A program made the position numbers and the translations under genes. From the NCBI GenBank assembly GCA_020634975.1, contig JACKAQ010000001.1, forward strand, positions 297,808-361,807: DNA of 64,000 nt. Direction: 5' to 3'. This document shows positions 27,084 to 40,741 of this stretch, piece after piece. The stretch's first letter is position 1. Each line of letters opens with the position of its first letter. Below the pieces are notes generated by a model that worked only from the letters and a program-made list of their open reading frames with translations, was not told the origin of the DNA and made no database searches. The stretch is from Calditrichia bacterium. GTDB taxonomy: Bacteria > Calditrichota > Calditrichia > RBG-13-44-9 > J075.

Positions 27084-28049
27084 ATGAGAACAATCTCCGA
27101 AACACAACTGGACGAAATATTTGGCATCGGCAGCGCCGTCACATTTAAACAAGTGATTGAAGAAGCGCGAATGCTGGCAAAAATTCCCCGCCCGATCATG
27201 ATTCAGGGCGAACGCGGAACGGGCAAGGAATTGCTGGCGCGCGCCATTCATTTGGAAAGCGACCGGAAAAAACAACCGTATGTTGTGGTCAATTGTGCTG
27301 CGTTTCAGGAAGATTTGTTTGCTGCGGAAATGTTTGGCCGGGAAAAAGGCGCGTACACCGGCGCTGTTGATTCGCGTCCCGGCAGACTGGAACTGGCCGA
27401 CGGCGGCACGCTGTTTTTGGACGAAGTGGCGAATATGAGCCGTGCGGTTCAGGAAAAATTGCTTCGCGTGATCGAATATCAACAATTTGAACGGCTCGGC
27501 GGCAGCAAACCGATTTCGGTGGATGTGCGGATTATTGCCGCAACCAACGCCAATCTCGATCAACTCATGGAAAAATCAGAATTTTTGCCGGATTTGTATG
27601 ACCGGTTATCGTTTGCGGTGCTCACTTTGCCACCGCTGCGAAAACGACGGGAAGATATCCCATCGCTGATCGAACACTTCATTTGTCAACTCCACAAAGA
27701 AATTCCCAACCTCGAACACAAATCGTTTACGCCTTCCGCGATTCAGGAACTCCAGAATTACCATTGGCCGGGGAACATCCGGCAGCTCAAAAACATCATC
27801 GAGCGCATTTATATTTCCGACGAAGACGGTACCATCAACGCATCGGAACTGCCGATCGAAATTACATCTGTGGAACCGATCCGCGGTAATTTCTACGAAA
27901 AAGTGCGCGCGTACGAAATCAACCTGTTGCTCAACTCGCTGAAAGATTTTGATGGCAACCAGCGCGCCGCAGCCGAAAATCTTGGGATGTCTTACGACCA
28001 GTTCCGCCACTTCTACAAAAAATACAAGTTGGAAGATTATCTGGTGTAA
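27084..28049 (+). CDS. pspF: Sigma-54-dependent transcriptional activator, AAA+ domain plus C-terminal HTH only (PspF-like, no receiver or sensor domain)
   Basis: It has Walker A (GERGTGKE), a GAYTGA loop (GAFTGA variant), Walker B (LFLDEV), an arginine finger region and a C-terminal Fis-type HTH. Confidence 0.85.
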   Translation: MRTISETQLDEIFGIGSAVTFKQVIEEARMLAKIPRPIMIQGERGTGKELLARAIHLESDRKKQPYVVVNCAAFQEDLFAAEMFGREKGAYTGAVDSRPGRLELADGGTLFLDEVANMSRAVQEKLLRVIEYQQFERLGGSKPISVDVRIIAATNANLDQLMEKSEFLPDLYDRLSFAVLTLPPLRKRREDIPSLIEHFICQLHKEIPNLEHKSFTPSAIQELQNYHWPGNIRQLKNIIERIYISDEDGTINASELPIEITSVEPIRGNFYEKVRAYEINLLLNSLKDFDGNQRAAAENLGMSYDQFRHFYKKYKLEDYLV

Positions 28050-28118
28050 AACACCGACACCGTTGGCGCAATACACCAACCCGATTTCATAAGTTCAATA
28101 AAAACAATAGATTTATTT

Positions 28119-28134
28119 TGGCATTCAGATTGCA
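28119..28134 (+). promoter_or_regulatory. Sigma-54 (-24/-12) promoter
   Basis: TGGCAT-TCAGA-TTGCA has exact consensus spacing (GG at -24, GC at -12). It lies 70 nt downstream of the activator gene and ~180 nt upstream of the next ORF. Confidence 0.55.
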
Positions 28135-28312
28135 ATATTATGGCATGAAGCCTGTGAAGGGGCTGTTAAATGACCAAAATAAATGACAATATGAAACAGA
28201 TTTCCAGAAATTGTCGGGCAGATTTTCTCACCGGAAGATTTCCGGTTTATCCGCGGCAATTGCTGAGAAATATCTTTTTCAACGAACAAGCTTGAGTTTT
28301 TTGGGGTGTGTT

Positions 28313-28732
28313 ATGGTGCAGCAAGACCGTTTTCAATATGAAATGAAGAACATTCTGGAAGCAAAAACATTGCTGGTTGTGCGGGCTGCAAAGCGCGTTC
28401 ACTACCGGTTGGGCAATGTTTCCGATCAAAAAAATTATCTGGATGCATTACAACGCGAATTTGAAGCGGATCATATTCGCTTCAAGAAAGAAGAACCGCA
28501 GCCGGAAGAAGACCTGCCCTCGCGAAGGCTAAAAAAGGATTATCTCTGCTTTGGCAACATGCTGGTGCGAACTATTAATGGTAATGTGATTCCCGAAAAC
28601 GATATTTTAAATTTTCGTAAAGAGCTGAAAAGATTAAACTTGCAATGCGGACTGATCGTAGGATTTTCGGATGACGGCATTGTCGTTGAACGGGTGACGG
28701 TTACAGAATCAAATAAACACAATTTATCCTGA
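28313..28732 (+). CDS. Hypothetical protein, first gene after the sigma-54 promoter
   Basis: It is a 139-aa ORF co-directional with the cluster. I recognise no domain. Confidence 0.4.
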   Translation: MVQQDRFQYEMKNILEAKTLLVVRAAKRVHYRLGNVSDQKNYLDALQREFEADHIRFKKEEPQPEEDLPSRRLKKDYLCFGNMLVRTINGNVIPENDILNFRKELKRLNLQCGLIVGFSDDGIVVERVTVTESNKHNLS

Positions 28733-28748
28733 GCAAACGGAGCACATC

Positions 28749-29282
28749 ATGAAAACAGTACCGCTATTTGAAGAAGAGCAGCAATTTCGCCAACCCTGGC
28801 TGATGGCGCTGCTCGGCATTACGGTGGCGCCGATTACACTGTTTTTGATTTATGTGATGATTTCGCAACTGGTTTTCGGAATTCCGGTTGGCAGCAAACC
28901 GATGCCGAACGCGATGGCCATCTGGTTCATGCCGTTGATGGTGTTGATTTGCAGCGGCATTATTTGGTTGTTTTGGAAAAGCAAATTAATCGTTCGCATC
29001 GATTCGGAAATGCTGCTTATCCGTTTTTTCCCATTCACGAAACGGGAAATACCGCTCTCGAAAATCCGGGAATTTGAAGCGCGGAAATACAATCCGCTCG
29101 GCGAATACGGTGGTTGGGGCGTACGATTGGGCTGGAAAGGCGGCAAAGCCTACACGGTCAGCGGAAATCACGGTGTTCAATTTGTGTTTCGTAATGGCGA
29201 AAAATTGTTGATCGGCTCGCAAAAAGCGACAGAATTTGAAGCTGCACTGCGGAGCGCTCTCGCTGAAAAAATAGACAAATAA
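28749..29282 (+). CDS. Membrane protein with 2 TM helices plus a C-terminal bacterial-PH-like domain (hypothetical)
   Basis: It has two N-terminal TM segments followed by a ~90-aa beta-rich domain. Confidence 0.5.
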   Translation: MKTVPLFEEEQQFRQPWLMALLGITVAPITLFLIYVMISQLVFGIPVGSKPMPNAMAIWFMPLMVLICSGIIWLFWKSKLIVRIDSEMLLIRFFPFTKREIPLSKIREFEARKYNPLGEYGGWGVRLGWKGGKAYTVSGNHGVQFVFRNGEKLLIGSQKATEFEAALRSALAEKIDK

Positions 29283-29332
29283 ATGTTTAATAATATTACA
29301 CTTACAACACTCATTTTTCGGAGGATTTTATC

Positions 29333-30055
29333 ATGAATATTTTTCAAAGAATCACAAAATTGGTCGAAGCCAACGTCAATTCGATGCTGGATAAAGCCGA
29401 AGACCCGGAAGTGATGGTTCGCCAAATCATTCGTGAAATGGAAGAAAGCATCATCGAATTGCGCCGCGAAACCGTAAAAGCCGTTGGCGCCCGCAAATTG
29501 CTGGAAAAGAAAATGCAGCTGCTCAATGAAAAATCCGCTGATCTCCAGCAAAAAGCCACACTCGCGCTGGAAAACGGAAACGAAGATTTAGCGCGCAAAT
29601 TGCTGGAACAAAAAATCGATGTCGAGAAAGAGAACAGCCAACTCGCAAATGAAGTAGAAACAGCAACTTATCTTGCCGAAAAAATGAAACAGGATTTGGT
29701 AAAACTGGAAGACCAGGTGCAAATTGCCCGTCGCCAAAAAGAGGAATTGATTCGCCGTAAACTCGCCGCCGAACGCAAAATGAACGCCACCGGCGCCATT
29801 CGCAAAACCCGCGATGCGTTGGAAGCGCTCACCGGTGCCACCAATAGTGCGGACGCGAATATCAACGCCATCGAAGCGCAAAAAGATAAAATTCTGCAAT
29901 TGGAAGCCGAAGCCGAGGCGATGGAAGAATTGATGGAAGGGAAATCCGCAGACGCCGAAAGCGAAAAAGAGCTGGAAAAAATGATCCAGAATAAAGCGGT
30001 GGAAGACGAATTGGCAAAGCTGAAAAAGATGCTCAGTGACGGCAAAAAAAAGTAG
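29333..30055 (+). CDS. pspA: PspA/IM30 (Vipp1/LiaH) family protein, paralog 1
   Basis: There is a GGAGG ribosome-binding site. The N-terminus MNIFQRITKLVEANVNSMLDKAEDPEVMVRQIIREMEE is followed by a long coiled coil, the typical PspA signature. Confidence 0.85.
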   Translation: MNIFQRITKLVEANVNSMLDKAEDPEVMVRQIIREMEESIIELRRETVKAVGARKLLEKKMQLLNEKSADLQQKATLALENGNEDLARKLLEQKIDVEKENSQLANEVETATYLAEKMKQDLVKLEDQVQIARRQKEELIRRKLAAERKMNATGAIRKTRDALEALTGATNSADANINAIEAQKDKILQLEAEAEAMEELMEGKSADAESEKELEKMIQNKAVEDELAKLKKMLSDGKKK

Positions 30056-30113
30056 CGAATTGAAACAGATCATAAAACCAATTTCGAGTAGCTAATTCAA
30101 TGGGAGAATCACC

Positions 30114-30734
30114 ATGTTAAAACTATACCTCGCCTGCCTATTATTTGGTGGCTTATTTATCATCATCTCCCTGTTTTTTGGCGCGGATGCTGACGCGGAA
30201 GCCGATGTGGATGTGGATGTTGACACTGACATCGACGTGGATACGGATGTGGAAATGGACGCCGACGCCGCAGAAGTCGAAGTTTCCGGCGAAGGTACTG
30301 TGGAAGCCATTAAATTTCTCAGCTTTCGCAATTTTGTGTTTTTTGTGGCCTTTTTCGGGCTCACCGGCAGCCTGCTCACCTGGATTGGCAGCAACTTTTT
30401 GTTGACGTTTGGCGCAGCCATTACGCTGGGATTTGTGGCGGCAACCGTTATGCATCGGGTGATGAAACAACTGGCGGCAACCGAAGTGGGCGAAACGCTG
30501 AATCTCGACCGGTTGGTTGGCATGCCGGCAAAAGTGACGATCAACGTTTCCCGGGATCATCGCGGCAAAGTATCGCTGGAAGCCGTCGGACAACGCATGC
30601 AGCTCCTCGCCCAAACGGCAGAAGAATCGGAACGCGATGAGTTCAGTGTTGGTGAATCGGTTTACATTTTGCACGTAAAAAACGGTATTGCATTTGTTGT
30701 GGAAGAAGCCTTTATCAACTCCGCAACCATTTGA
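30114..30734 (+). CDS. NfeD-like (YuaF-type) membrane protein with an acidic low-complexity linker and a C-terminal OB-fold
   Basis: It has an N-terminal TM segment, a DADAEADVDVDVDTDIDVDTDVEMDADAA tract, further TM segments and a C-terminal beta domain (KVTINVS...VGESVYILHVKNGIAFV). It lies directly upstream of the flotillin gene. Confidence 0.6.
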   Translation: MLKLYLACLLFGGLFIIISLFFGADADAEADVDVDVDTDIDVDTDVEMDADAAEVEVSGEGTVEAIKFLSFRNFVFFVAFFGLTGSLLTWIGSNFLLTFGAAITLGFVAATVMHRVMKQLAATEVGETLNLDRLVGMPAKVTINVSRDHRGKVSLEAVGQRMQLLAQTAEESERDEFSVGESVYILHVKNGIAFVVEEAFINSATI

Positions 30735-30784
30735 TCACCCGTTTATTTATAAATTCGCAGATGTAAAATAATGGAGGATGTCAC

Positions 30785-30982
30785 ATGATTACCAAAGATT
30801 ACCACCGCACATTATTTCTTTCGATGATTTTGATCGCCCTCGGTGTGTCGATTTCCACCACAATGGGGGATTCTTCGGGCACCATTGGCACGGTGATGAT
30901 CGCCGTTGGCGGCTTATTTTTTATCATCGGAATGACCAAAAGAAGAAAATTTGAACAAAAAAATCACCACCCAAAATCATAG
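30785..30982 (+). CDS. Small 2-TM membrane protein
   Basis: It has a GGAGG ribosome-binding site, 65 aa and two hydrophobic helices. Confidence 0.4.
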   Translation: MITKDYHRTLFLSMILIALGVSISTTMGDSSGTIGTVMIAVGGLFFIIGMTKRRKFEQKNHHPKS

Positions 30983-30993
30983 AAAGGTTAGCT

Positions 30994-31173
30994 ATGATAT
31001 ACGTTGGTTTACTGATTTTAGCTTATGTGGCGGTTTGTCTCTATCGCGGAAATTTGATTTGGGAATTGGGCGTTTCCCGCCGCAGTAACAGTCCTTATTT
31101 TTACTGGTTTGGTATCGGAACTTATTCGGTAGTCGCGCTGATGATGATTTACGCAGGCTACATAAATCTATAA
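30994..31173 (+). CDS. Small 2-TM membrane protein (59 aa), not in the ORF track
   Basis: An AAAGG ribosome-binding site precedes it. The sequence is MIYVGLLILAYVAVCLYRGNLIWELGVSRRSNSPYFYWFGIGTYSVVALMMIYAGYINL. Confidence 0.3.
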   Translation: MIYVGLLILAYVAVCLYRGNLIWELGVSRRSNSPYFYWFGIGTYSVVALMMIYAGYINL

Positions 31174-31228
31174 TAAACATTTGTTTGCAATTCAACTTAA
31201 CCAACTTAACTTTTAGGAGGGTTGTGAT

Positions 31229-32773
31229 ATGGATTTCATAAGTGCTATCATATTTATCGTTGTTATCCTCGCGGTTGTTGTGGTGATGATGGTCAGCCGC
31301 TTGCTGATTGTCTGCCATCCCAACGAAGTTGTGATACTTTCCGGACGCAAACGTAAACTGCCGGACGGATCGATTGTCGGTTACCGGCTCATTCGCGGCG
31401 GTCGCGCGGTGCGCATGCCGGTGCTGGAAAAAGCAGCCCGCATGTCGCTGGAATCGATTCCCCTGGAGCTTTCGGTGCGCAACGCGTATTCCAAAGGCGG
31501 TATTCCGTTGAATGTGGATGCCATCGCCAACATCAAAATTGATTCGACAGAACCGGCGTTCGGCAACGCGGTCGAGCGTTTTTTGATGAAACCGATGCAG
31601 GAAATTCACCAGATTGCGAAAGATACGCTGGAAGGTAACCTGCGCGGCGTGCTGGCATCGCTGACGCCGGAAGAAGTGAACGAAGACCGCCTGAAGTTTG
31701 CCCAAAGCCTTATCGAAGAAGCGGATAACGATTTGAACCAACTCGGTTTGCAACTCGATACGCTGAAAATTCAGAATGTCGCGGACGAAGCGGGATATCT
31801 CGATTCGATCGGTCGCCGCAAAACCGCCGAAGTGCTCTCAACCGCACGAATGGCAGAAGCCGCAAAAGCCGCCGAAGCGGAACAGGCAGAAGCGGAAGCA
31901 CGCCAGTTTGCGGAAATTGCCAAAGCCAAAGCAGATCAGGAAATTAAAGCGGCGCAAATTTCTGCGGATCGCGAAGTGAAGATGGCCAAAGCCCGCGCCG
32001 ATGCCGCAGCCCGTCAGGCGGAAGCGGAGCAGGAAGCCGTCGCAAAGGAAGCGGAAGCGACATCACTGCGGAAAGCTGAGGTCGCAAAAGCAATGGCTGA
32101 TCAGGAAATTCGCACATCGCAAATTAAGGCAGATCAAGAGGTTAAGGTATCTCGCGCTATTGCAGATCAACAGATCGAAACTGAGAACAACAATCTGCGT
32201 ATGAAAAAAGCGGAACTGGAACGCGAAGCCATTATCATGGAAAAAGAAGCGGAAGTTGCCGGACAAAAAGCCCAGGCAAAATACGAACAGGATATGGAAG
32301 AAGAACGCATTCTGCTGCAACAAAAACGCCTGATGGCAGACGTTATCGAACCCGCAAAAGCCAAAAAAGAAGCGATGGAGCTGGAAGCACGCGGCGAAGC
32401 TGCGCCGATTCTCGAGAAAGGTAAAGCGAACATCGAAGTGCTGGATCAGATGATCAAAACCTACCTCAGCGCCAAAGGTGAAGGCGAAAAAGTATTCATG
32501 CTGAACATGTTGCCGGATATTATCAAACAACTGTCCGACACGGTGAACAAGGTCACGATCGACAAAGTGAGTGTGATCGACAGCGGCGGAAACGGCAGCC
32601 ACGGCGTGGCAAATTTCATCAACCAGTTGCCCGCAGCAGTGGTTTCGCTGGCGGAACAGATCGAAAACGCCACCGGTGTGAACATCCTCAACCAGTTCAA
32701 ACAGAAACCGGAAATTGGTCAGATTGTCCACCACAACGGTGAGCACGACAAAGCGAAAGATGATGAGAAGTAG
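31229..32773 (+). CDS. floT: Flotillin (SPFH/Band-7 domain, FloT/YuaG-like)
   Basis: It has an N-terminal TM segment and an SPFH domain, followed by long Ala/Glu-rich EA-repeat coiled coils (AEAEQAEAEARQ...). Confidence 0.85.
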   Translation: MDFISAIIFIVVILAVVVVMMVSRLLIVCHPNEVVILSGRKRKLPDGSIVGYRLIRGGRAVRMPVLEKAARMSLESIPLELSVRNAYSKGGIPLNVDAIANIKIDSTEPAFGNAVERFLMKPMQEIHQIAKDTLEGNLRGVLASLTPEEVNEDRLKFAQSLIEEADNDLNQLGLQLDTLKIQNVADEAGYLDSIGRRKTAEVLSTARMAEAAKAAEAEQAEAEARQFAEIAKAKADQEIKAAQISADREVKMAKARADAAARQAEAEQEAVAKEAEATSLRKAEVAKAMADQEIRTSQIKADQEVKVSRAIADQQIETENNNLRMKKAELEREAIIMEKEAEVAGQKAQAKYEQDMEEERILLQQKRLMADVIEPAKAKKEAMELEARGEAAPILEKGKANIEVLDQMIKTYLSAKGEGEKVFMLNMLPDIIKQLSDTVNKVTIDKVSVIDSGGNGSHGVANFINQLPAAVVSLAEQIENATGVNILNQFKQKPEIGQIVHHNGEHDKAKDDEK

Positions 32774-32948
32774 GTTAAAAAAACCGCACCATCAGCATGA
32801 AACGCTTGTTCCGCGCTGATGGTGTGTTAAAACAAACGAAAACAAATATTTAGAAATACATCGAATTTTTCAAAAAATGAAAAAGAACAAGACTATTTCT
32901 GCCGGGTTGATGAAAGTATGAACAGAAAAAAACCTAAAACACTGAGCC

Positions 32949-33395
32949 GTGAAGATAGAGCTAAAAGGCGAAAAAGAGAGACTAATCAAACTCATTTTAT
33001 CAAAGCTATTCATCAGCCTTTTATTGGGGATGTTTAACGGTGCAGTTGTAGATAATATTAAAATAGGATTCTGGTCGGTTTTAATTTTCATAGCAACATT
33101 TACGGCTTCCTATTTTATTAGAAATTACATTCGTGTTCGACTTTATCTAACTGCTGTTCTATGGGGTTTGGTTTGGGGCGCATGTATGTCAGGTATCTTA
33201 ACACTCAATTATTACGGACGACATGGGTTCAGAGATGATACGATCGCATTAGCAATTATTATGCTTTTGGGTTATTCACTCATGTTCGTAATAGATATTT
33301 ATATTGGGAGACATGATTATATTAAACCAGATTTTCAGTCTTATGGTGAGTTTTACAAAAGCTGGTTCAATTATAAGTATCTTAAAAACAAATAA
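32949..33395 (+). CDS. Hypothetical 4-TM membrane protein in an AT-rich islet (GTG start)
   Basis: The ORF is 148 aa. The local GC (~33%) is far below the neighbours. Confidence 0.3.
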   Translation: MKIELKGEKERLIKLILSKLFISLLLGMFNGAVVDNIKIGFWSVLIFIATFTASYFIRNYIRVRLYLTAVLWGLVWGACMSGILTLNYYGRHGFRDDTIALAIIMLLGYSLMFVIDIYIGRHDYIKPDFQSYGEFYKSWFNYKYLKNK

Positions 33396-33427
33396 TTAGA
33401 CTCAAAATATTTGAAAGGAGCACAGTA

Positions 33428-33991
33428 TTGGGATTCACAAATTTTTTCAAAGGAAAAAAAGAAGGTGAAGAATTTGATCCACTACGGGACTTGACACTTT
33501 CAAAAATGAAGGTCGGGTATTTTGTTGAATTTGATCTGAAAACCTGGCAGGTTACCGCATACAATAAATACGATTTTGGCGACGGCTTATGGAGCGAGGA
33601 ATGGGAACTGACCTCCGGTCGCGAAAAAATCTGGCTGGAAAAACGCGAAGATGACGAAGTGGAATGGACCGTCAGCAAAAAGCTGCCAATCGGCGCAATT
33701 GCGGAAGATGTCCGCCAGCACGTCAAAGATTTCGACGATCCGCCGGGGCAAATTTCCGTGAAGGAAAAAACGTTTTATCTGGATGAATCCGGTTCGGTCT
33801 ATTATTATCCCGGTGGCAACACTCAACAACAGGGTCAGGGTATCATCGCATGGGAATATATTGATGATGACGATGAAAATTTTGTGAGCATCGAGCAATG
33901 GGGCGAGGATGATTTTGAAGCATCGCAAGGCTATTATGTGGAAGAATTTATGTTTAGCAACATCCTGCCGTCGGGGGACGCACAAGCTTGA
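33428..33991 (+). CDS. DUF4178-like protein (PspA-neighbourhood family)
   Basis: It has a TTG start after AAAGGAG. The sequence KVGYFVEFDLKTWQVTAYNKYDFGDGLWSEEWEL...IWLEKREDD fits the DUF4178 pattern as I recall it. It has an acidic C-terminus. Confidence 0.45.
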   Translation: MGFTNFFKGKKEGEEFDPLRDLTLSKMKVGYFVEFDLKTWQVTAYNKYDFGDGLWSEEWELTSGREKIWLEKREDDEVEWTVSKKLPIGAIAEDVRQHVKDFDDPPGQISVKEKTFYLDESGSVYYYPGGNTQQQGQGIIAWEYIDDDDENFVSIEQWGEDDFEASQGYYVEEFMFSNILPSGDAQA

Positions 33992-34102
33992 CGGAAGCAT
34001 GGATAAAGGATAAAGTAAATTTTTTGACTTTTTCAATATTAAACAATAAAAAACAACATTTCTAAATCAATAAAATACAAACACTTAAAAAAGGGGTTTG
34101 TT

Positions 34103-34819
34103 TTGAAAAAAACAATTACATTTGCACTTTTCGGAATTGTTGCGTTGCTGCTGTCGAGCTGCGGCGCATCGAATCCGGTTGAGAAAATGCAACGCGAGCT
34201 GGACGATTATCCGGAATATTCCATTATTCTGGAAGATATGAAAATGGAAGGCACTTTTTTTAAGGATTACTTTCATCAATATAAAATTATTCATGCGGAA
34301 AAAGCCGGTGATTCGCTGGCATATTTCACCAATCAAACAGAATGGATTTTGGTAGATGAAGATTTTTTCAGCAATTACCAACGGTATTTGGGAATGACAA
34401 TTGCATCCAAATCTGCTGAAGGTGATGTGAGCGACTCTCCGCAACCGCCGGGCTACCAATATGTTGGCGATGAACGCTACGGCCAATGGCGAACCGATAA
34501 CTCCGGCAACAGCTTTTGGGAATTTTACGGAAAATATGCCATGTTGCAGGCGCTGCTCGGCGGCTGGAATCGCCCGATTTATCAGGATGACTGGCGCGAT
34601 TACCGCACCTCCCGGCGCAACAATCAGCCGTATTTCGGCAAAAATCGCCAGTGGGGCACCGACGGAACCGCAACGAAAAAAACGAATCCAACATTTTTCC
34701 AACGCCGCCAAATGCGCGAGCAGGCGTCCAAACAATCCTTTACGGATAAGCTGAAACAACGCACACGCCGCAGTAATATGAGTAAATCCCGAAGCCGCAG
34801 CGGTGGTTTTGGAAAATAA
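34103..34819 (+). CDS. Lipoprotein with a basic C-terminal tail (possible DUF4247-type partner of DUF4178)
   Basis: It has a lipobox (LLSSC) and a Trp/Tyr-rich central region. The C-terminus is KLKQRTRRSNMSKSRSRSGGFGK. Confidence 0.5.
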   Translation: MKKTITFALFGIVALLLSSCGASNPVEKMQRELDDYPEYSIILEDMKMEGTFFKDYFHQYKIIHAEKAGDSLAYFTNQTEWILVDEDFFSNYQRYLGMTIASKSAEGDVSDSPQPPGYQYVGDERYGQWRTDNSGNSFWEFYGKYAMLQALLGGWNRPIYQDDWRDYRTSRRNNQPYFGKNRQWGTDGTATKKTNPTFFQRRQMREQASKQSFTDKLKQRTRRSNMSKSRSRSGGFGK

Positions 34820-34834
34820 ACAAATGAGGAAATA

Positions 34835-35017
34835 ATGAAACATAACGATCAAAATCAGGACAATAAAAAAGAAATGGGAAAATGGGTTGCCGTTGGCATC
34901 GCTATCGGAACGGCAATGGGCGTTTCGATGGATAATATCGGGCTTGGCATCTCGTTGGGTCTTGTGATCGGTCTGGCAATCGGCACAGTAAAATCCCGAA
35001 ATGATAAAACGGAGTAA
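34835..35017 (+). CDS. Glycine-zipper small membrane protein
   Basis: It has a GAGGAA ribosome-binding site. The sequence is WVAVGIAIGTAMGVSMDNIGLGISLGLVIGLAIG. Confidence 0.45.
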   Translation: MKHNDQNQDNKKEMGKWVAVGIAIGTAMGVSMDNIGLGISLGLVIGLAIGTVKSRNDKTE

Positions 35018-35020
35018 AAA

Positions 35021-35866
35021 ATGACTTTAGACCAAACCATATCCGGACTAATTTACCTTATTGCAGTGTTTATACTTTTTTGGCTGGGAAAAGTGGTTTA
35101 TGGAATAACCAATCCGCGCATCAATTTGCGCGATGAATTGGTGAAAAAAGATAATCTGGCGATGGCGCTGGCAGTGATCGGCTACTATTTCGGGCTGATT
35201 ATCGCGTTGGGTGGCGTGCTTTCCAGCGAATCCGCAGGATTGTTCATCGATCTGTTCGAAATATTTTTTTACGGCATTATTTCGATTGTCCTGATGAATT
35301 TTTCGATTAAAATCAATGACAAAATCATCCTCAGCAAATTTGACAATATCAAAGAAATTATCGATGATCAGAACGCCGGAACGGGCGTTGTGGAAGCGGC
35401 CAACCACATTGCTGTGGGCATGATTATCGCCGGCGCGATGAGCGGCGATTACGGCGGCTGGGCAACTGCGCTCACATTCTGGATTTTGGGACAAGCCGTG
35501 CTGATTGTCGCAGGCATTGTTTACGCCAAAATTCTGCCGTTCGATCTGCACGCGGAAATCGAAAAAGATAACGTTGCTGTGGGCGTTGCGTTTGCGGGTG
35601 TGCTGATCGCCATCGGCAACATCTTGCGCATCGGCTCCACCGGCGATTTTATTTCGTGGCAACAGAATCTCACCACGTTTTTCGGATTCGTCATATTCGG
35701 ACTGGTGCTGCTGCCGGTTTTGCGCTTTCTGACCGACAAAGTGTTGCTCCCCGGCGAAAAACTTACCGATGAACTGGTGAACCAGACAAATCCGAATATC
35801 GGTGCCGGTGCGGTGGAAGCGTTTGCCTATATCGGTGCGTCGTTTTTGATTGGTTGGGTTATATAG
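35021..35866 (+). CDS. Membrane protein with internally repeated DUF350-like units
   Basis: There are four repeats of N-x-A-x-A/G-x-x-x-x-G-x-x-I-A-x-G with TM helices: DNLAMALAVIGYYFGLIIALGG, NAGTGVVEAANHIAVGMIIAGA, DNVAVGVAFAGVLIAIGN and NIGAGAVEAFAYIGASFLIG. Confidence 0.5.
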   Translation: MTLDQTISGLIYLIAVFILFWLGKVVYGITNPRINLRDELVKKDNLAMALAVIGYYFGLIIALGGVLSSESAGLFIDLFEIFFYGIISIVLMNFSIKINDKIILSKFDNIKEIIDDQNAGTGVVEAANHIAVGMIIAGAMSGDYGGWATALTFWILGQAVLIVAGIVYAKILPFDLHAEIEKDNVAVGVAFAGVLIAIGNILRIGSTGDFISWQQNLTTFFGFVIFGLVLLPVLRFLTDKVLLPGEKLTDELVNQTNPNIGAGAVEAFAYIGASFLIGWVI

Positions 35867-35914
35867 CTGGTTTCTAGTTTCTGGTTTCTGGTTTCTGGAT
35901 TGAAGATTCTGGAT
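35867..35914 (+). repeat. Heptamer array TTCTGGT/TTCTGGA (x5, degenerate) immediately 5' of the four-helix-bundle gene
   Basis: The sequence is ctggtttctagtttctggtttctggtttctggattgaagattctggat. Confidence 0.6.
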
Positions 35915-35951
35915 GCTCTGAAAAATGTAAACTTAAGTGCAGAATGTGAAA

Positions 35952-36395
35952 ATGAGTTACAAAAAATTGCAGATATGGCAGCTATCTCGTGAAATTGTGA
36001 TTGATATTCACAAAATGACGCTGGAAACGTTACCAAAATTTGAGATGTTCGAAACAGGATCACAAATTCGCAGATCGAGCAAATCGACCAAATCTTTGAT
36101 TGTGGAAGGATACGGCAGGCGCTATTATAAACAGGATTTCATACGTTATTTATTGAATGCGCTCGCCTCTAACGATGAAACAATTGATCATTTAGAAACC
36201 CTTTTCGAAACAAAGTCTTTATCTGATTCAATTCTGTACGAAAACATACACGAACGGCTTATTTCTTTAGGTAAAATGCTCAACAATTTCATCAACTCGG
36301 TTCAAAAAAATCATCAGACACCATCGATTTATGTAAAGGAAGAAATGCCAGACTATCTGAATTTTCCGGAAACAAAAGATGACAAAACAGAATAA
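35952..36395 (+). CDS. Four-helix-bundle protein (TIGR02436, 23S rRNA intervening-sequence protein family)
   Basis: [59 protein letters not shown] matches the family. GC is ~33% against ~52% for the neighbours. Confidence 0.7.
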
Positions 36396-36451
36396 AATTT
36401 TTGCAAATATAGATTCGGAATCCAGAACTTGCGCTGAGCGCAGCCGAAGCG

Positions 36452-36481
36452 TCCAGAATCCAGAATCCAGAATCCAGAATC
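36452..36481 (+). repeat. Heptamer array TCCAGAA x4 (reverse complement of the upstream array) immediately 3' of the four-helix-bundle gene
   Basis: The sequence is tccagaatccagaatccagaatccagaatc. It is preceded by a further TCCAGAA copy and the near-palindrome GCGCTGAGCGC at 36421-36445. Confidence 0.6.
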
Positions 36482-36495
36482 TCTCCGGCAACTGG

Positions 36496-38013
36496 TTGCT
36501 GAAAGCCTGCATTTTCGCCACCGGGTTATCCGGAATTGTGGCGGAATACGTGATGTCCACGCTGGCGAGTTATCTGCTCGGTAACTCCGTTTTGCAATGG
36601 ACACTCACTATTTCCATCATGCTGTTTGCGATGGGCGTTGGCAGCCGTTTCAGCAAATTTGTGGATGACGCGTTGCTGGATGCCTTCGTTTTCACGGAAT
36701 TACTGCTCTCCGTTTTATGCGCGATCAGCGCTACAACTATCTATTTTTTATCGGCTTACATGAATCCGATAACACCGCTGATTTACACGCTGTCATTCGC
36801 AATCGGTTTGCTGATCGGGCTGGAAATTCCGCTGGCAACCCGTCTCAACGATTATTTTGAGGATTTGAAAATCAACATCAGTTCGGTAATGGAAAAAGAT
36901 TATTACGGCGCGTTGCTCGGCGGCTTGCTGTTTGCGTTTGTCGCCCTCCCCTACCTCGGTTTAACTTATACGCCCATTTTGCTCGGCGCAGTAAATTTTG
37001 CAGTCGCGGCGGCGCTATTTTGGCAGCATCGCGATTCGCTAAAATTTCCGAAAACACTCACTGCCGGATTTTTGATCGTGCCCGCCTTGCTCGGCGCATT
37101 GGCCGTTTCGGCGGAGCCGATTGTGCTGTATGGCGAGCAGCAAAAATATGTGGATAAAGTTGTTTATCAGGAGCAAACGCCCTATCAGCGAATTGTGATC
37201 ACTCAATTCAAAAATGATTACTGGCTGTATCTCAATGGAAATGAACAATTTAGCAGCTACGACGAACACCGCTATCACGAACCGCTGGTGCATCCGGCAA
37301 TGCTGGCGAGCGTTGCGCATAAAAATGTGCTGATTCTCGGTGGCGGCGATGGATTGGCTGCGCGGGAAATCCTCAAATATCCCGACGTCGAAAAAATTAC
37401 GTTGGTCGATCTCGATCCGGCGATGACGGAACTCGGCAAGAATTACCCGGTTTTTCGCCAACTCAACCAAAATGCGCTCAGCGATCCCCGGGTGCACATT
37501 CGCAACGAGGACGCATACACATTTTTGCAGCAAACCCGGGAAATTTTCGATGTGATTATTATCGATTTGCCCGACCCGAAAACCATCGAGCTGGCGCGAT
37601 TGTACACCCGGGAATTTTATCAATTGGCGAAACGTCAACTGTCCAAAGGCGGGATTGTGGTTACGCAAGCTGGCAGCCCGTTTTTTTCACGGGAAGCGTA
37701 TCTCTGCATATTGCAAACGATGCGAACTGCCGGATTGGCTGCGATTCCTTATCACAACCACATTCCAACACTCGGCGAATGGGGCTGGGTGCTGGCAATG
37801 AATGCGGAAATTGACGAAAATCGTTTGAAAAATCACCTGCTATCACTATCATTTGATGATTTGCAAACACGTTTTTTAAACCGGGACGCAATGGCGGCGA
37901 TGCTTCTTTTCGGCAAAAACGAACTGGCCGGTATCGATGCCATTCGCGTTAATTCTGAACTGGAACTCGCATTATTTGATTATTACAAAAATGGGTCGTG
38001 GGAATTTTATTGA
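36496..38013 (+). CDS. Spermidine/spermine-synthase-like aminopropyltransferase fused to an N-terminal polytopic (~7 TM) membrane domain
   Basis: The C-terminal domain has LILGGGDGLAAREILKYPDVEKITLVDLDP...DVIIIDLPDP, the SpeE fold motifs. The N-terminal 220 aa are hydrophobic helices. The start is uncertain: I use TTG 36496, and the open frame begins at 36379 inside the repeat. Confidence 0.7.
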   Translation: MLKACIFATGLSGIVAEYVMSTLASYLLGNSVLQWTLTISIMLFAMGVGSRFSKFVDDALLDAFVFTELLLSVLCAISATTIYFLSAYMNPITPLIYTLSFAIGLLIGLEIPLATRLNDYFEDLKINISSVMEKDYYGALLGGLLFAFVALPYLGLTYTPILLGAVNFAVAAALFWQHRDSLKFPKTLTAGFLIVPALLGALAVSAEPIVLYGEQQKYVDKVVYQEQTPYQRIVITQFKNDYWLYLNGNEQFSSYDEHRYHEPLVHPAMLASVAHKNVLILGGGDGLAAREILKYPDVEKITLVDLDPAMTELGKNYPVFRQLNQNALSDPRVHIRNEDAYTFLQQTREIFDVIIIDLPDPKTIELARLYTREFYQLAKRQLSKGGIVVTQAGSPFFSREAYLCILQTMRTAGLAAIPYHNHIPTLGEWGWVLAMNAEIDENRLKNHLLSLSFDDLQTRFLNRDAMAAMLLFGKNELAGIDAIRVNSELELALFDYYKNGSWEFY

Positions 38014-38089
38014 GAACCGATTGATAAACAACCTGATCAGCAAAATAAAATCGAATAGATAGAAGCCAAAAGCCAAGTGCCAAAAGCCA

Positions 38090-39100
38090 ATGAAAAATAT
38101 TGCCCATAACATTATCAAATTTGTCATCAAGGAAAACCTGCACCGCATTTTGCTGATCATGTTGTTGCTGATTGTTTTCGGTGCGGTGGGCATGGCGATT
38201 TTTGAGCCGAATGTCAATTGGGATAACGCATTGTGGTGGAGTATCGTCACGTTGACCACTGTCGGATATGGCGATATTGCGCCAACTACGTTCGGCGGGC
38301 GCATCGTTGGATCGATCATCATGATTTTGGGTATCGGCATTTTGGGGATGTTCACGGCAACCATCGCCAGCGTATTTGTGGAGCAAAAACTGAAAGTGAA
38401 TCGCGGAATGAGTAATTACGATTTCACCAATCACACGATTATTTGTGAATGGAATTATCGCGCCAAAGAAATTTTGAGAGAGCTGCGTTCAGACAGTCGC
38501 GTGCTGGATCAACCCATCATTTTGATCGCAGATATCGACGAAAAACCGGTGAATGACGAAAATCTCCATTTCATCAAAGGCGAAGTGGACGAAGCAAATT
38601 TGCAGCGCGCCAATATTGCGGCTGCAAAAACGGTCGTCATTCTCGGCGATGACAAATTGGATAACAACGCCCGCGATGCGCAAGTGGTGCTCGCTGCGCT
38701 GATTATCGAATCCATCAACCCGAGCGCTTACACAATTGTGGAATTGGTGAACGAACAAAACGTGGCGCATTGCCGTAAAGCGCATGTGGACGAAATTATT
38801 GTTTTAAATGAGTTTAGCAGCCGCCTAATTGCCCGCGCAGCGCTCGATCACGGTATTTCGAAAGTGATGAGCGAACTGCTCAGCGCCAGCACCGGCAACA
38901 ATTTGTATCAGGTGCCGGTGCCCCGCGAACTGGCAGATCAATCATTTCTGGTTGTGTTTTCGGAGATGAAACGCACCCGGAACAGCATTGTTCTGGCGGT
39001 GTATCGCCGGGATCAGGATATCGTAATTTCCAACCCGGATGTGGATTTGAAAGTAGCAGCGAACGACCAGTTGGTCATCGTTTCGCAAAACGAACAGTAA
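38090..39100 (+). CDS. MthK-like K+ channel (2TM pore plus RCK/TrkA-N domain)
   Basis: The selectivity filter is TLTTVGYGD, followed by an RCK Rossmann domain. Confidence 0.85.
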   Translation: MKNIAHNIIKFVIKENLHRILLIMLLLIVFGAVGMAIFEPNVNWDNALWWSIVTLTTVGYGDIAPTTFGGRIVGSIIMILGIGILGMFTATIASVFVEQKLKVNRGMSNYDFTNHTIICEWNYRAKEILRELRSDSRVLDQPIILIADIDEKPVNDENLHFIKGEVDEANLQRANIAAAKTVVILGDDKLDNNARDAQVVLAALIIESINPSAYTIVELVNEQNVAHCRKAHVDEIIVLNEFSSRLIARAALDHGISKVMSELLSASTGNNLYQVPVPRELADQSFLVVFSEMKRTRNSIVLAVYRRDQDIVISNPDVDLKVAANDQLVIVSQNEQ

Positions 39101-39114
39101 TTTGAGGTGATGAA

Positions 39115-39480
39115 ATGTCCCTTTTTTCGAGAATCGCAGGAATTATTCGCGCTAACCTGAATTTCCGGCGCGATGATGTTGACATCGACGATAGCGTTTA
39201 CGAAGAAATTCGTGATTCGCAGCGCGAATATCAACGCCAAAAACAGCAGCGCAACGATGCCAATCATCACCGGAATGACGATCCGTTGGCCAAACACTAC
39301 GCCAATCTTGAAGTGCCGTACGGCTCGGATCTGGAAACTGTCACCAAATCGTGGAAAGCGTTGCTGCGCAAATATCACCCGGATATTCATTCCGGCGATC
39401 CCGAAAAACAGAAAATTGCGAATCAACTTGTTCAGGAATTAAACCAATCTTATAATGAGTTGAAAAAAAAGTTACGCTAA
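39115..39480 (+). CDS. J-domain protein (C-terminal DnaJ domain) with a PspA-like N-terminal amphipathic helix
   Basis: The J domain is DLETVTKSWKALLRKYHPDIHSGDPEKQKIANQLVQELNQSY (HPD motif). The N-terminus MSLFSRIAGIIRANLN parallels MGIFSRIFKIF and MNIFQRITKLVEANVN of the two PspA paralogs. Confidence 0.65.
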   Translation: MSLFSRIAGIIRANLNFRRDDVDIDDSVYEEIRDSQREYQRQKQQRNDANHHRNDDPLAKHYANLEVPYGSDLETVTKSWKALLRKYHPDIHSGDPEKQKIANQLVQELNQSYNELKKKLR

Positions 39481-39556
39481 AAATTGATCATAAATAATTG
39501 TTTTCATTAGGATTAATCAACACAATTAATTCACTATTACAACAGGAGGCTAACGT

Positions 39557-39958
39557 ATGGCCATGTTTAGCAAATTCGAAATGGTTAAGGATTATTTAAT
39601 GGAACTCGGCTTTGCGATTATTCGCGAAGATGAGGATGAAGAGATCGTGGTTGTAAATGATCCCGATAATGGCATCAACAATATGGTCATCGATTGCGAA
39701 GACCCGATTGTGATTATGGAGCAATTGATTATGGAAGTGCCGGAAAAACCCGGTGATTTGTATGAAAAATTGCTGAAAATGAACCGCACACTGGTTCACG
39801 GCGCATTTGTGCTGGATGAAGAAGGCAAACGCGTTATTTATCGCGATACGCTGCAGTTGGAAAATCTCGATAAAAATGAGCTGGAAGCCTCGATTGTCGC
39901 GCTTTCCATGGGCATTGCAGAATTTGGCAGCGAGTTGCTGAAATACGCAAAACGCTAA
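39557..39958 (+). CDS. YbjN-like small acidic protein (candidate PspA-associated partner)
   Basis: It has an AGGAGG ribosome-binding site and 133 aa. It lies immediately upstream of the second pspA. Confidence 0.45.
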   Translation: MAMFSKFEMVKDYLMELGFAIIREDEDEEIVVVNDPDNGINNMVIDCEDPIVIMEQLIMEVPEKPGDLYEKLLKMNRTLVHGAFVLDEEGKRVIYRDTLQLENLDKNELEASIVALSMGIAEFGSELLKYAKR

Positions 39959-40021
39959 TTTTTTTATCGCTTAACTATTTGATAATATTTAATTTGAAAC
40001 CAAACTTCAGGAGATAAAAAG

Positions 40022-40741
40022 ATGGGTATTTTTTCGCGCATATTCAAAATTTTCCAGTCGGAGGCGCATTCAGTTGTGGATCAACTGGAAGATCCGATCA
40101 AATTGACCGAACAGGGCATTCGCGATTTGAAAAAAGATTTGGCGCAAGCCATGCGTAGCCTGGCGGAAGTGAAATCGTTGTCCATCCGCATGCGCAAAGA
40201 CGGCGAAGACCAGAAAAAGCTTGCTGCCGATTACGAACGCAAAGCCATGATGCTGCTCCAACGCGCCCAAAGCGGCGAACTGGACGCCGCAGAAGTTGAC
40301 CGTTTGGCAACCGAAGCGCTCACCAAAAAAGAAGATTCCTCACGCCGCGCACAGGAATTTATGACCAATCACGAGCAGCAGCAGAAAATGGCTGACCAGT
40401 TGCAGAACAAAGTGAACAAACTGAAATCTGCGATTTCCAAATATGAAAACGAGTTGGTCACTCTTCGCGCCCGCGCCCGCACTGCGGAATCGATGAAAAA
40501 AATCAACAAACAAATGGCGCAAGTTGATGCATCCAGCACCGTTGCGATGCTCGAAAAAATGAAAGACAAAGTGACCGAAGAAGAATCGCTGGCGGAAGCC
40601 TACGGCGAAATGGCCGACACAACCAAATCCGTTGACGAAGAAATTGACAAAGCGTTGGCGGGTGCGTCTGTGGATGCCGCAAAAGATTCGCTGGCAGCGC
40701 TAAAAGCCAAAATGGGCTTAAAAGAAGGCGATGCCAAATAG
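40022..40741 (+). CDS. pspA: PspA/IM30 family protein, paralog 2
   Basis: The N-terminus MGIFSRIFKIFQSEAHSVVDQLEDPIKLTEQGIRDLKKDL is followed by a coiled coil. Confidence 0.8.
   Translation: MGIFSRIFKIFQSEAHSVVDQLEDPIKLTEQGIRDLKKDLAQAMRSLAEVKSLSIRMRKDGEDQKKLAADYERKAMMLLQRAQSGELDAAEVDRLATEALTKKEDSSRRAQEFMTNHEQQQKMADQLQNKVNKLKSAISKYENELVTLRARARTAESMKKINKQMAQVDASSTVAMLEKMKDKVTEEESLAEAYGEMADTTKSVDEEIDKALAGASVDAAKDSLAALKAKMGLKEGDAK

Follow-up and report, generated by a model that had tools for sequence, protein, structure and literature searches.

A family of small J-domain proteins with a PspA-like N-terminal helix, encoded beside CesT/Tir-like chaperone and PspA genes

What does a small J-domain protein do in a gene cluster that encodes PspA, when its own first residues look like those of PspA? 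The question is raised by a 64,000-nucleotide stretch of a Calditrichia bacterium genome (contig JACKAQ010000001.1, positions 297,808 to 361,807; hereafter the window), in which the open reading frame (ORF) at 39115..39480 on the forward strand (ATG start, 121 codons) had been described, in a preliminary description, as a J-domain protein with a PspA-like N-terminal helix. The ORF itself, Pfam and profile tests all confirmed this: by sequence and predicted fold, the 121-aa protein is a minimal class-C J-domain protein, its N-terminal helix is the hallmark of a large J-protein family, and the likeness of this helix to the α0 helix of PspA/Vipp1 is more than chance. As set out below, we consider it probable, on balance, that the protein is a J-co-chaperone whose sole targeting element is this α0-homologous helix, and that it recruits DnaK to the co-encoded PspA.

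A J-domain and a PspA-like helix in one small protein

We began from the C-terminal part of the protein, which matched Pfam DnaJ (PF00226) over residues 60-118, with 33.3 bits against a cut-off of 27.8 (E = 5e-8). The same model matched 34/34 aligned family members, and the H88-P89-D90 motif was invariant across these 34 homologs. In the AlphaFold2 (AF2) model, the predicted local distance difference test (pLDDT) score was 83-90 across residues 57-120, and a Foldseek search of this model against the PDB gave top matches that were all J-domains (root-mean-square deviation 1.4-2.5 Å over ~54 residues), including that of auxilin and that of DnaJ bound to DnaK (5nro_B, 1.7 Å). The C-terminal HPD J-domain of the preliminary description is thus well founded. 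The linker that precedes it (residues 18-56) was unconserved in the family alignment and variable in length, such that family proteins span ~110 to 220 aa, and its pLDDT was 48-61. It had been called basic, which did not hold, as it is net acidic (8 K/R vs 12 D/E).

DnaJ was the sole significant Pfam family in the protein, and no G/F region, zinc finger or DnaJ C-terminal domains were found, hence its assignment as a minimal class-C J-protein; source annotations label the family merely ‘J domain-containing protein’. Membership in three other groups was considered and rejected. The NCBIfam models of DnaJ and CbpA aligned with the J-domain only, at scores far under their cut-offs. The best NCBIfam match of the protein was DjlA, of which the J-domain end alone aligned (32.9 bits against a cut-off of 162). 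As for PspA/IM30/Vipp1, the body of the ESCRT-III fold (the α1-α2/3 hairpin and α4-α5) is absent from the protein, which has 121 aa only.

At the other end of the protein, AF2 predicted a helix over residues 3-15 which, carrying R6, R12, N14 and N16, has neither the length nor the apolar character of a transmembrane (TM) segment. Its hydrophobic moment (residues 2-17) was 0.48 and its net charge +2. The moment is comparable to those of the two PspA paralogs encoded in the window (0.53 and 0.47) and to the family median (0.47), while N-termini of window ORFs of at least 200 aa had a background median of 0.22; the amphipathicity analysis that had been suggested thus agreed with the proposed helix. 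The N-termini quoted earlier for the paralogs were also correct (MNIFQRITKLVEANVN for paralog 1, at 29333-30055, and MGIFSRIFKIFQSEAHSV for paralog 2, at 40022-40741), and both proteins matched Pfam PspA_IM30 (E = 9e-34 and 3e-42, respectively).

To see how widely the helix occurs, homologs were gathered by a word-indexed search, which yielded 173, and ~250 family members were retrieved in all. An exhaustive search of 1.84 billion cluster representatives with a hidden Markov model (HMM) indicated a family of at least 150 clusters at 50% identity, with 79 clusters at E <= 1e-30 and the best 150 all at <= 5.5e-27; for most of these best 150, the alignment began at position 1 of the profile and residue 1 of the protein. 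The helix was found at residue 1 in nearly all of the ~250 members, with the consensus M-S-[ILV]-[LFI]-[SKR]-R-[LI]-x-[RDK]-[IL]-[LAI]-[RK]-[AS]-N-L-[NH], in which R6 was invariant, R/K12 was present in 91% and A/S13 in 98%. The N-terminal similarity first noticed in a single protein is therefore conserved in its orthologs.

Since the motif is too short for HMMER filters, its likeness to PspA was assessed with custom profile tests. In the first, a 24-column HMM built from 111 J-family N-termini only was run on 7244 ORFs of at least 50 aa from 80 genome loci and the window. Following the J proteins themselves, the profile retrieved 15 PspA proteins of both paralog types, matched at their own residues 1-23 (E = 4e-5 to 0.27), and the first unrelated ORF ranked behind all 15. 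In the second, run on 2735 ORFs of an independent set (80 metagenome loci picked via their CesT gene), more than 20 PspA N-termini scored at E < 0.01, the best unrelated ORF scored 0.43, and no third protein family with the helix motif was found among the 2735 ORFs. In addition, hhalign matched the J-family N-terminal region without the J-domain (80 sequences) to 25 PspA sequences with a probability of 94% (P = 1.1e-7), placing residues 1-29 on 1-34.

Could the resemblance nevertheless be convergence or chance, with an unrelated small J-protein lying in the cluster by accident? The match covers a short segment only (~17-24 residues), and Pfam PspA_IM30 (PF04012) gave no match to the 34 aligned J-family members even at E <= 10. 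Yet with both independent sets the residue-1-anchored profiles placed no unrelated match ahead of PspA, the hhalign P value was on the order of 1e-7, and helix and synteny were both conserved across phyla, rendering this explanation extremely improbable.

The likeness extends to residues with an assigned role. In α0 of PspA/Vipp1 (AHa, residues 2-19), contacts with lipid head groups are made through R6, R9 and K12 (Hudina et al. 2025, PMC12358876), and lipid binding through F4 and V11 (Gupta et al. 2020). The J protein shares with this helix its position at residue 1 and its cationic amphipathic character, and the lipid-binding positions F4, R6, V11 and K12 of PspA/Vipp1 correspond to F4, R6, I11 and R12 in the J protein. 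Its polar A-N-[LIV]-N stretch resembles those of classical PspA and Nostoc Vipp1 (MGLFDRIKRVVSSNLNDL), and is less like the Q-S-E-A-H-S α0 of the adjacent PspA type. The preliminary description ascribed both membrane binding and regulatory contacts to this helix; the former stands, AHa being the membrane/effector helix, whereas a second helix, AHb, at residues 25-42, makes the regulatory contacts of E. coli PspA (McDonald 2015, PMC4556811).

Conserved synteny with CesT and PspA

Among GTDB species-representative genomes, the J gene was followed on the same strand by a CesT_Tir_1 gene and then by a PspA gene at 16 loci, and directly by PspA, with no detected CesT, at two more. Three further look-ups (Sulfidibacter corallicola, a Chlorobi-like bacterium and SAR324) also showed the J-CesT-PspA triad, bringing it to 19 genome loci. 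These loci come from at least 8 phylum-level lineages, among them Calditrichota (Calditrichia), Bacteroidota (Cytophagia), Chlorobiales, Acidobacteriota, Latescibacterota, Bdellovibrionota (Bdellovibrionales), Gastranaerophilales and SAR324. This conserved order strengthens the proposed link to PspA. In S. corallicola, the triad forms the end of a DUF4178-lipoprotein-DUF350-spermidine synthase-J-CesT-PspA series, while in the Chlorobi-like bacterium (locus L082) the three genes stand alone, with unrelated genes of the other strand on either side.

The metagenome loci anchored on CesT offered a view of the same association that did not depend on the J gene. PspA lay directly 3' of CesT in 61/63, and a helix-J gene directly 5' of it, on the same strand, in 28/66, at distances of -13 to 360 nt; in J-less CesT-PspA dyads, a K+ channel gene abutted CesT in 23/38 loci. 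The J gene is therefore a common but optional insert at the channel-CesT junction.

Several family members deviate from this arrangement. A Myxococcota subgroup has an N-terminus that is even more PspA-like (MSIGKRLIDLARSELNSLLDRAA), and its gene lies beside RNase G, often adjoining a DUF4178 gene. Among deviating Cytophagales and other members, one locus (L050) has J directly followed by PspA with no detectable CesT, and Rhodocytophaga aerolata (L053), L034 and the MSFKDRISRNIRANLNDFLDRV subgroup (L031/L085) have no PspA within 10 kb. Conversely, Chloroherpeton thalassium (CP001100.1, L167) carries DUF4178-lipoprotein-DUF350-spermidine synthase alone, with no adjacent J, CesT or PspA. As L167 and L082 each hold one part on its own, the cluster is made up of separable modules. 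No Hsp70 gene was found near the J gene in any J-family locus, making housekeeping DnaK the likely partner.

These arrangements bear on two other accounts of the J protein. In one, DUF4178 is the functional partner and the linkage to pspA is secondary, reflecting a shared larger envelope/polyamine operon. At 30 loci the J gene indeed had a DUF4178 gene within 10 kb, in differing arrangements, ~17 of these being Myxococcota loci without CesT or PspA. However, at non-myxobacterial loci DUF4178 is 1.5-6 kb away and CesT-PspA always adjacent, the triad occurs without DUF4178 in L082, and the DUF4178 operon occurs without J in C. thalassium, all of which make this account improbable.

The other account concerns CesT. 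Chaperones of type III secretion systems bind the N-termini of effectors and, by analogy, the helix could be a protein-binding peptide: the CesT/Tir-like chaperone would bind α0 of PspA paralog 2 as well as its look-alike on the J protein, which would then act as a competitor or hand-over factor that couples PspA release to DnaK. Such a role would fit the invariable adjacency and order of J, CesT and PspA, the confinement of the motif to J and PspA in CesT-anchored loci, and the weak membrane binding of a single AHa (see below). We nonetheless regard it as quite unlikely, given that loci without an adjacent CesT gene (L050, L062 and every Myxococcota locus) still encode the helix, and that the helix is closer to the classical PspA/Vipp1 α0 (A-N-[LIV]-N) than to that of the adjacent PspA2 (Q-S-E-A-H-S).

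The gene cluster in the window

Within the window, all genes from the PspF-like activator to the second PspA (27084-40741) lie on the forward strand, in the order PspF-like activator, classical PspA, flotillin, DUF4178, lipoprotein, DUF350, TM-spermidine-synthase fusion, K+ channel, J, CesT and second PspA (Table 1). The J gene starts 14 nt past the stop codon of the channel gene, and 63 nt separate the CesT gene from PspA paralog 2. A CesT/Tir-PspA operon of the yjfI-yjfJ type, with a 7TM-spermine synthase, DUF350, a lipoprotein, DUF4178 and a K+ channel, has been described (Ravi et al. 2024), and the cluster at 33428-40741 (+) corresponds to it gene for gene. The published description contains no J-domain gene, whereas here one lies between the channel gene and CesT. 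A Calditrichia metagenome-assembled chromosome (OZ245730.1) was 98% identical to the window.

Table 1. Coordinates of the J gene, its parts and the neighbouring genes in the window
Feature	Position	Strand	Evidence and remarks
Helix-linker-J protein gene (class-C J-domain protein)	39115..39480	+	ORF, Pfam DnaJ match, homologs
Shine-Dalgarno-like GAGGTG	39104..39109	+	Read from sequence; 5 nt 5' of the J-gene ATG
Residues 1-17, MSLFSRIAGIIRANLNF, cationic amphipathic helix resembling PspA/Vipp1 α0 (AHa)	39115..39165	+	AF2, hydrophobic moment, profile tests
Linker, residues 18-56, low complexity, net acidic	39166..39282	+	Alignment, pLDDT, composition
J-domain, residues 57-121	39283..39477	+	Pfam PF00226, AF2, Foldseek
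HPD codons (H88-P89-D90), Hsp70-activating motif	39376..39384	+	Alignment; codons read from sequence
CesT_Tir_1/YbjN-like chaperone gene	39557..39958	+	Pfam PF22550, E = 1.4e-51; 76 nt 3' of J gene
PspA paralog 2, YjfJ-type via pairing with the CesT/Tir-like gene	40022..40741	+	Pfam PspA_IM30, E = 2.6e-42
K+ channel gene with RCK domain	38090..39100	+	Pfam Ion_trans_2, Slo-like_RCK, TrkA_N; directly 5' of J gene
Membrane domain fused to spermidine/spermine synthase-like domain	36379..38013	+	Pfam Spermine_synth, E = 2e-44; co-occurs with J gene in loci
DUF350 (YjfL-family) membrane protein	35021..35866	+	Pfam PF03994, two copies
Predicted lipoprotein, N-terminus ...LLLSSCGAS	34103..34819	+	ORF/sequence; operon position conserved across loci
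DUF4178 protein	33428..33991	+	Pfam PF13785
PspA paralog 1, classical type	29333..30055	+	Pfam/NCBIfam; heads the neighbouring module
PspF-like sigma54 activator	27084-28049	+	Pfam/NCBIfam; PspA paralog 1 module
Flotillin	31229-32773	+	Pfam/NCBIfam; PspA paralog 1 module

In the YjfJ-type PspA (loci L088-L166; 40022-40741 in the window), a variable Ser/Ala-rich stretch leads into a conserved C-terminal tail, ...DSLAALKKKMGI. This tail is identical with or without a J gene, and recalls the flexible C-terminal tail of VIPP1, the site of its contact with cpHsc70-1.

Other features of the cluster were observed alongside these. The predicted lipoprotein matched no Pfam or NCBIfam family. A PF05635 (‘23S rRNA-intervening sequence protein’) gene at 35937-36395 lies between the DUF350 gene and the spermidine-synthase fusion, overlapping the called start of the latter; in the 98%-identical genome (L001) a second copy lies between the synthase and K+ channel genes, the two copies being at about -3488 and -1481 from its J gene, and the gene looks like a strain-variable small insert. 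Two membrane-protein ORFs with no Pfam or NCBIfam family accompany the PspA1-flotillin module: one at 30114-30734, between the PspA paralog 1 and flotillin genes, with a TM segment followed by an acidic D/V/E-rich repeat, and one at 32949-33395, 3' of the flotillin gene and before DUF4178.

Turning to promoters, the sequence TGGCATTCAGATTGC at 28119-28133 (+), which differs from the sigma54 -24/-12 consensus at a single position, lies 70 nt past the PspF-like gene and 5' of the PspA1 module. It was the only well-placed site that a sigma54 search of the window produced, with none near the J gene, and the TGGCAC-N5-TTGC pattern was not enriched in the window (77 observed vs 85 expected). Scans for sigma70 promoters and terminators gave counts near those of shuffles.

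A possible route for DnaK to PspA

J-domains trigger ATP hydrolysis by Hsp70 at a chosen place and, as the protein has no other candidate address label, the N-terminal helix is the candidate. Judging from domain content, a plausible course of events is as follows. The helix would insert into anionic or packing-defective inner membrane, at the sites that PspA α0 occupies, and may also align beside PspA α0 helices, possibly in the α0 columns of the polymer. The flexible linker of ~40 residues would allow the J-domain to reach cytosolic DnaK-ATP, whereupon the HPD motif would trigger ATP hydrolysis and DnaK would clamp a nearby protein, the likeliest client being the co-encoded YjfJ-type PspA polymer. 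As an outcome, this polymer would be remodelled or disassembled, or its assembly controlled.

Precedent comes from chloroplasts, to which the preliminary description had pointed and where the literature agrees with it: HSP70B, CDJ2 and CGE1 assemble and disassemble VIPP1 in Chlamydomonas (PMC10602608), and Arabidopsis cpHsc70-1 disassembles VIPP1 ‘similarly to Vps4’ (PMC12798727). The J protein could be the bacterial counterpart of the CDJ2-HSP70B-CGE1 system acting on VIPP1, in that a dedicated J-protein and an Hsp70 control a PspA-family (bacterial ESCRT-III) polymer there, as is proposed here. Unlike the helix-J gene, CDJ2 belongs to a eukaryotic organelle and is not in an operon with its client; no α0-like helix is reported for it (compared by description only), and in Arabidopsis Hsp70 contacts VIPP1 at its C-terminal tail. 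In layout, the protein is closer to DjlA, an inner-membrane type III J-protein of E. coli, which likewise has an N-terminal membrane element, a linker and a C-terminal J-domain, but also a transmembrane helix and a central domain that the J protein lacks. The protein is a J-protein rather than a PspA. We hypothesize that it acts as a targeted Hsp70 adaptor, with CDJ2 as its nearest parallel in role and DjlA in layout, and with a helix taken over from its presumed client for targeting.

A number of observations weigh against recruitment of DnaK to PspA by this protein. About 58% of close CesT-PspA dyads have no J gene, PspA proteins with and without a J neighbour showed no obvious difference in N-terminus, C-terminus or length, and in the Myxococcota helix-J loci neither CesT nor pspA was present within 10 kb. 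AF2 modelled the helix with low confidence (pLDDT ~54). Furthermore, the J protein, which lacks the ESCRT-III body (α1-α5) of PspA/Vipp1, also lacks AHb and mimics AHa only, presenting one helix per monomer where a PspA polymer presents many. A single AHa fused to eGFP showed no detectable membrane binding, two or three copies being needed (McDonald 2015, PMC4556811); by extension, a J protein acting as a monomer may depend on avidity or on a protein partner. This result speaks against simple tethering to the membrane; it either weakens the model or favours cooperative docking beside PspA helices.

Some of these points would suit a J-protein with a general role in membrane proteostasis, in which the helix would do no more than tether DnaK activity to the inner membrane. 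It would be a peripheral-membrane analogue of DjlA, with clients such as the K+ channel, the TM-spermidine synthase or DUF350, and not PspA. The DjlA-like layout, the best NCBIfam match of the J-domain, the position of the J gene between the channel gene and CesT, and the Myxococcota members without a nearby pspA are all in keeping with such a role. However, the helix is not generic, matching PspA α0 specifically, including the polar A13, N14 and N16, and CesT-PspA is the tightest and most widespread neighbour of the J gene, and its only neighbour in L082. Considering both sides, we find this alternative doubtful, and retain recruitment of DnaK to the co-encoded PspA as the reading that we favour; the preliminary interpretation is in this sense supported as a hypothesis.

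A more specific variant can be put forward, albeit tentatively. Small adaptors are known to place an ATPase on a membrane coat for its disassembly, as in clathrin uncoating by auxilin-Hsc70 and in the action of Vps4 on ESCRT-III. By mimicking PspA α0, the helix might slot into the α0 columns on the membrane face of PspA/YjfJ-type polymers, making the protein an adaptor that recruits housekeeping DnaK as a disassembly ATPase of bacterial ESCRT-III. The functional logic would be shared with auxilin-Hsc70 and Vps4, with no homology outside the J-domain, and the targeting element would differ in that it copies a helix of the coat protein itself.

Bacterial PspA and Vipp1 are relatives of ESCRT-III, and we know of no Vps4 in bacteria. 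The disassembly or regulation of PspA/Vipp1 polymers outside enterobacteria has been openly named as a gap (Ravi et al. 2024). The words DnaJ, J-domain, Hsp70 and DnaK do not occur in the text or accessible supplements of two comparative-genomics papers on the Psp system (Ravi et al. 2024; Popp et al. 2022), consistent with the preliminary remark that no bacterial Psp-linked J-protein has been described. A full-text literature search for PspA with J-domain, DnaK or DjlA returned no description of such a protein, though most subscription-journal papers lay outside this search and absence is not proof; PspA is likewise absent from a review of bacterial Hsp70 machines.

The α0 helix is an unannotated short module that adds a new entry to the targeting devices of J-proteins, and one that domain-based censuses would miss, since Pfam detects the J-domain only. 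If the helix indeed acts as an α0-mimicking adaptor, it would supply the functional counterpart to Vps4 recruitment that has long been missing for bacteria without Vps4, and would exemplify a principle of targeting by copying a piece of the client, which is not described for J-proteins. A widespread, operon-encoded J-protein that carries the membrane helix of PspA is thus a testable candidate for bringing DnaK to PspA in non-photosynthetic bacteria, with Sulfidibacter corallicola as a cultured host of the full operon.
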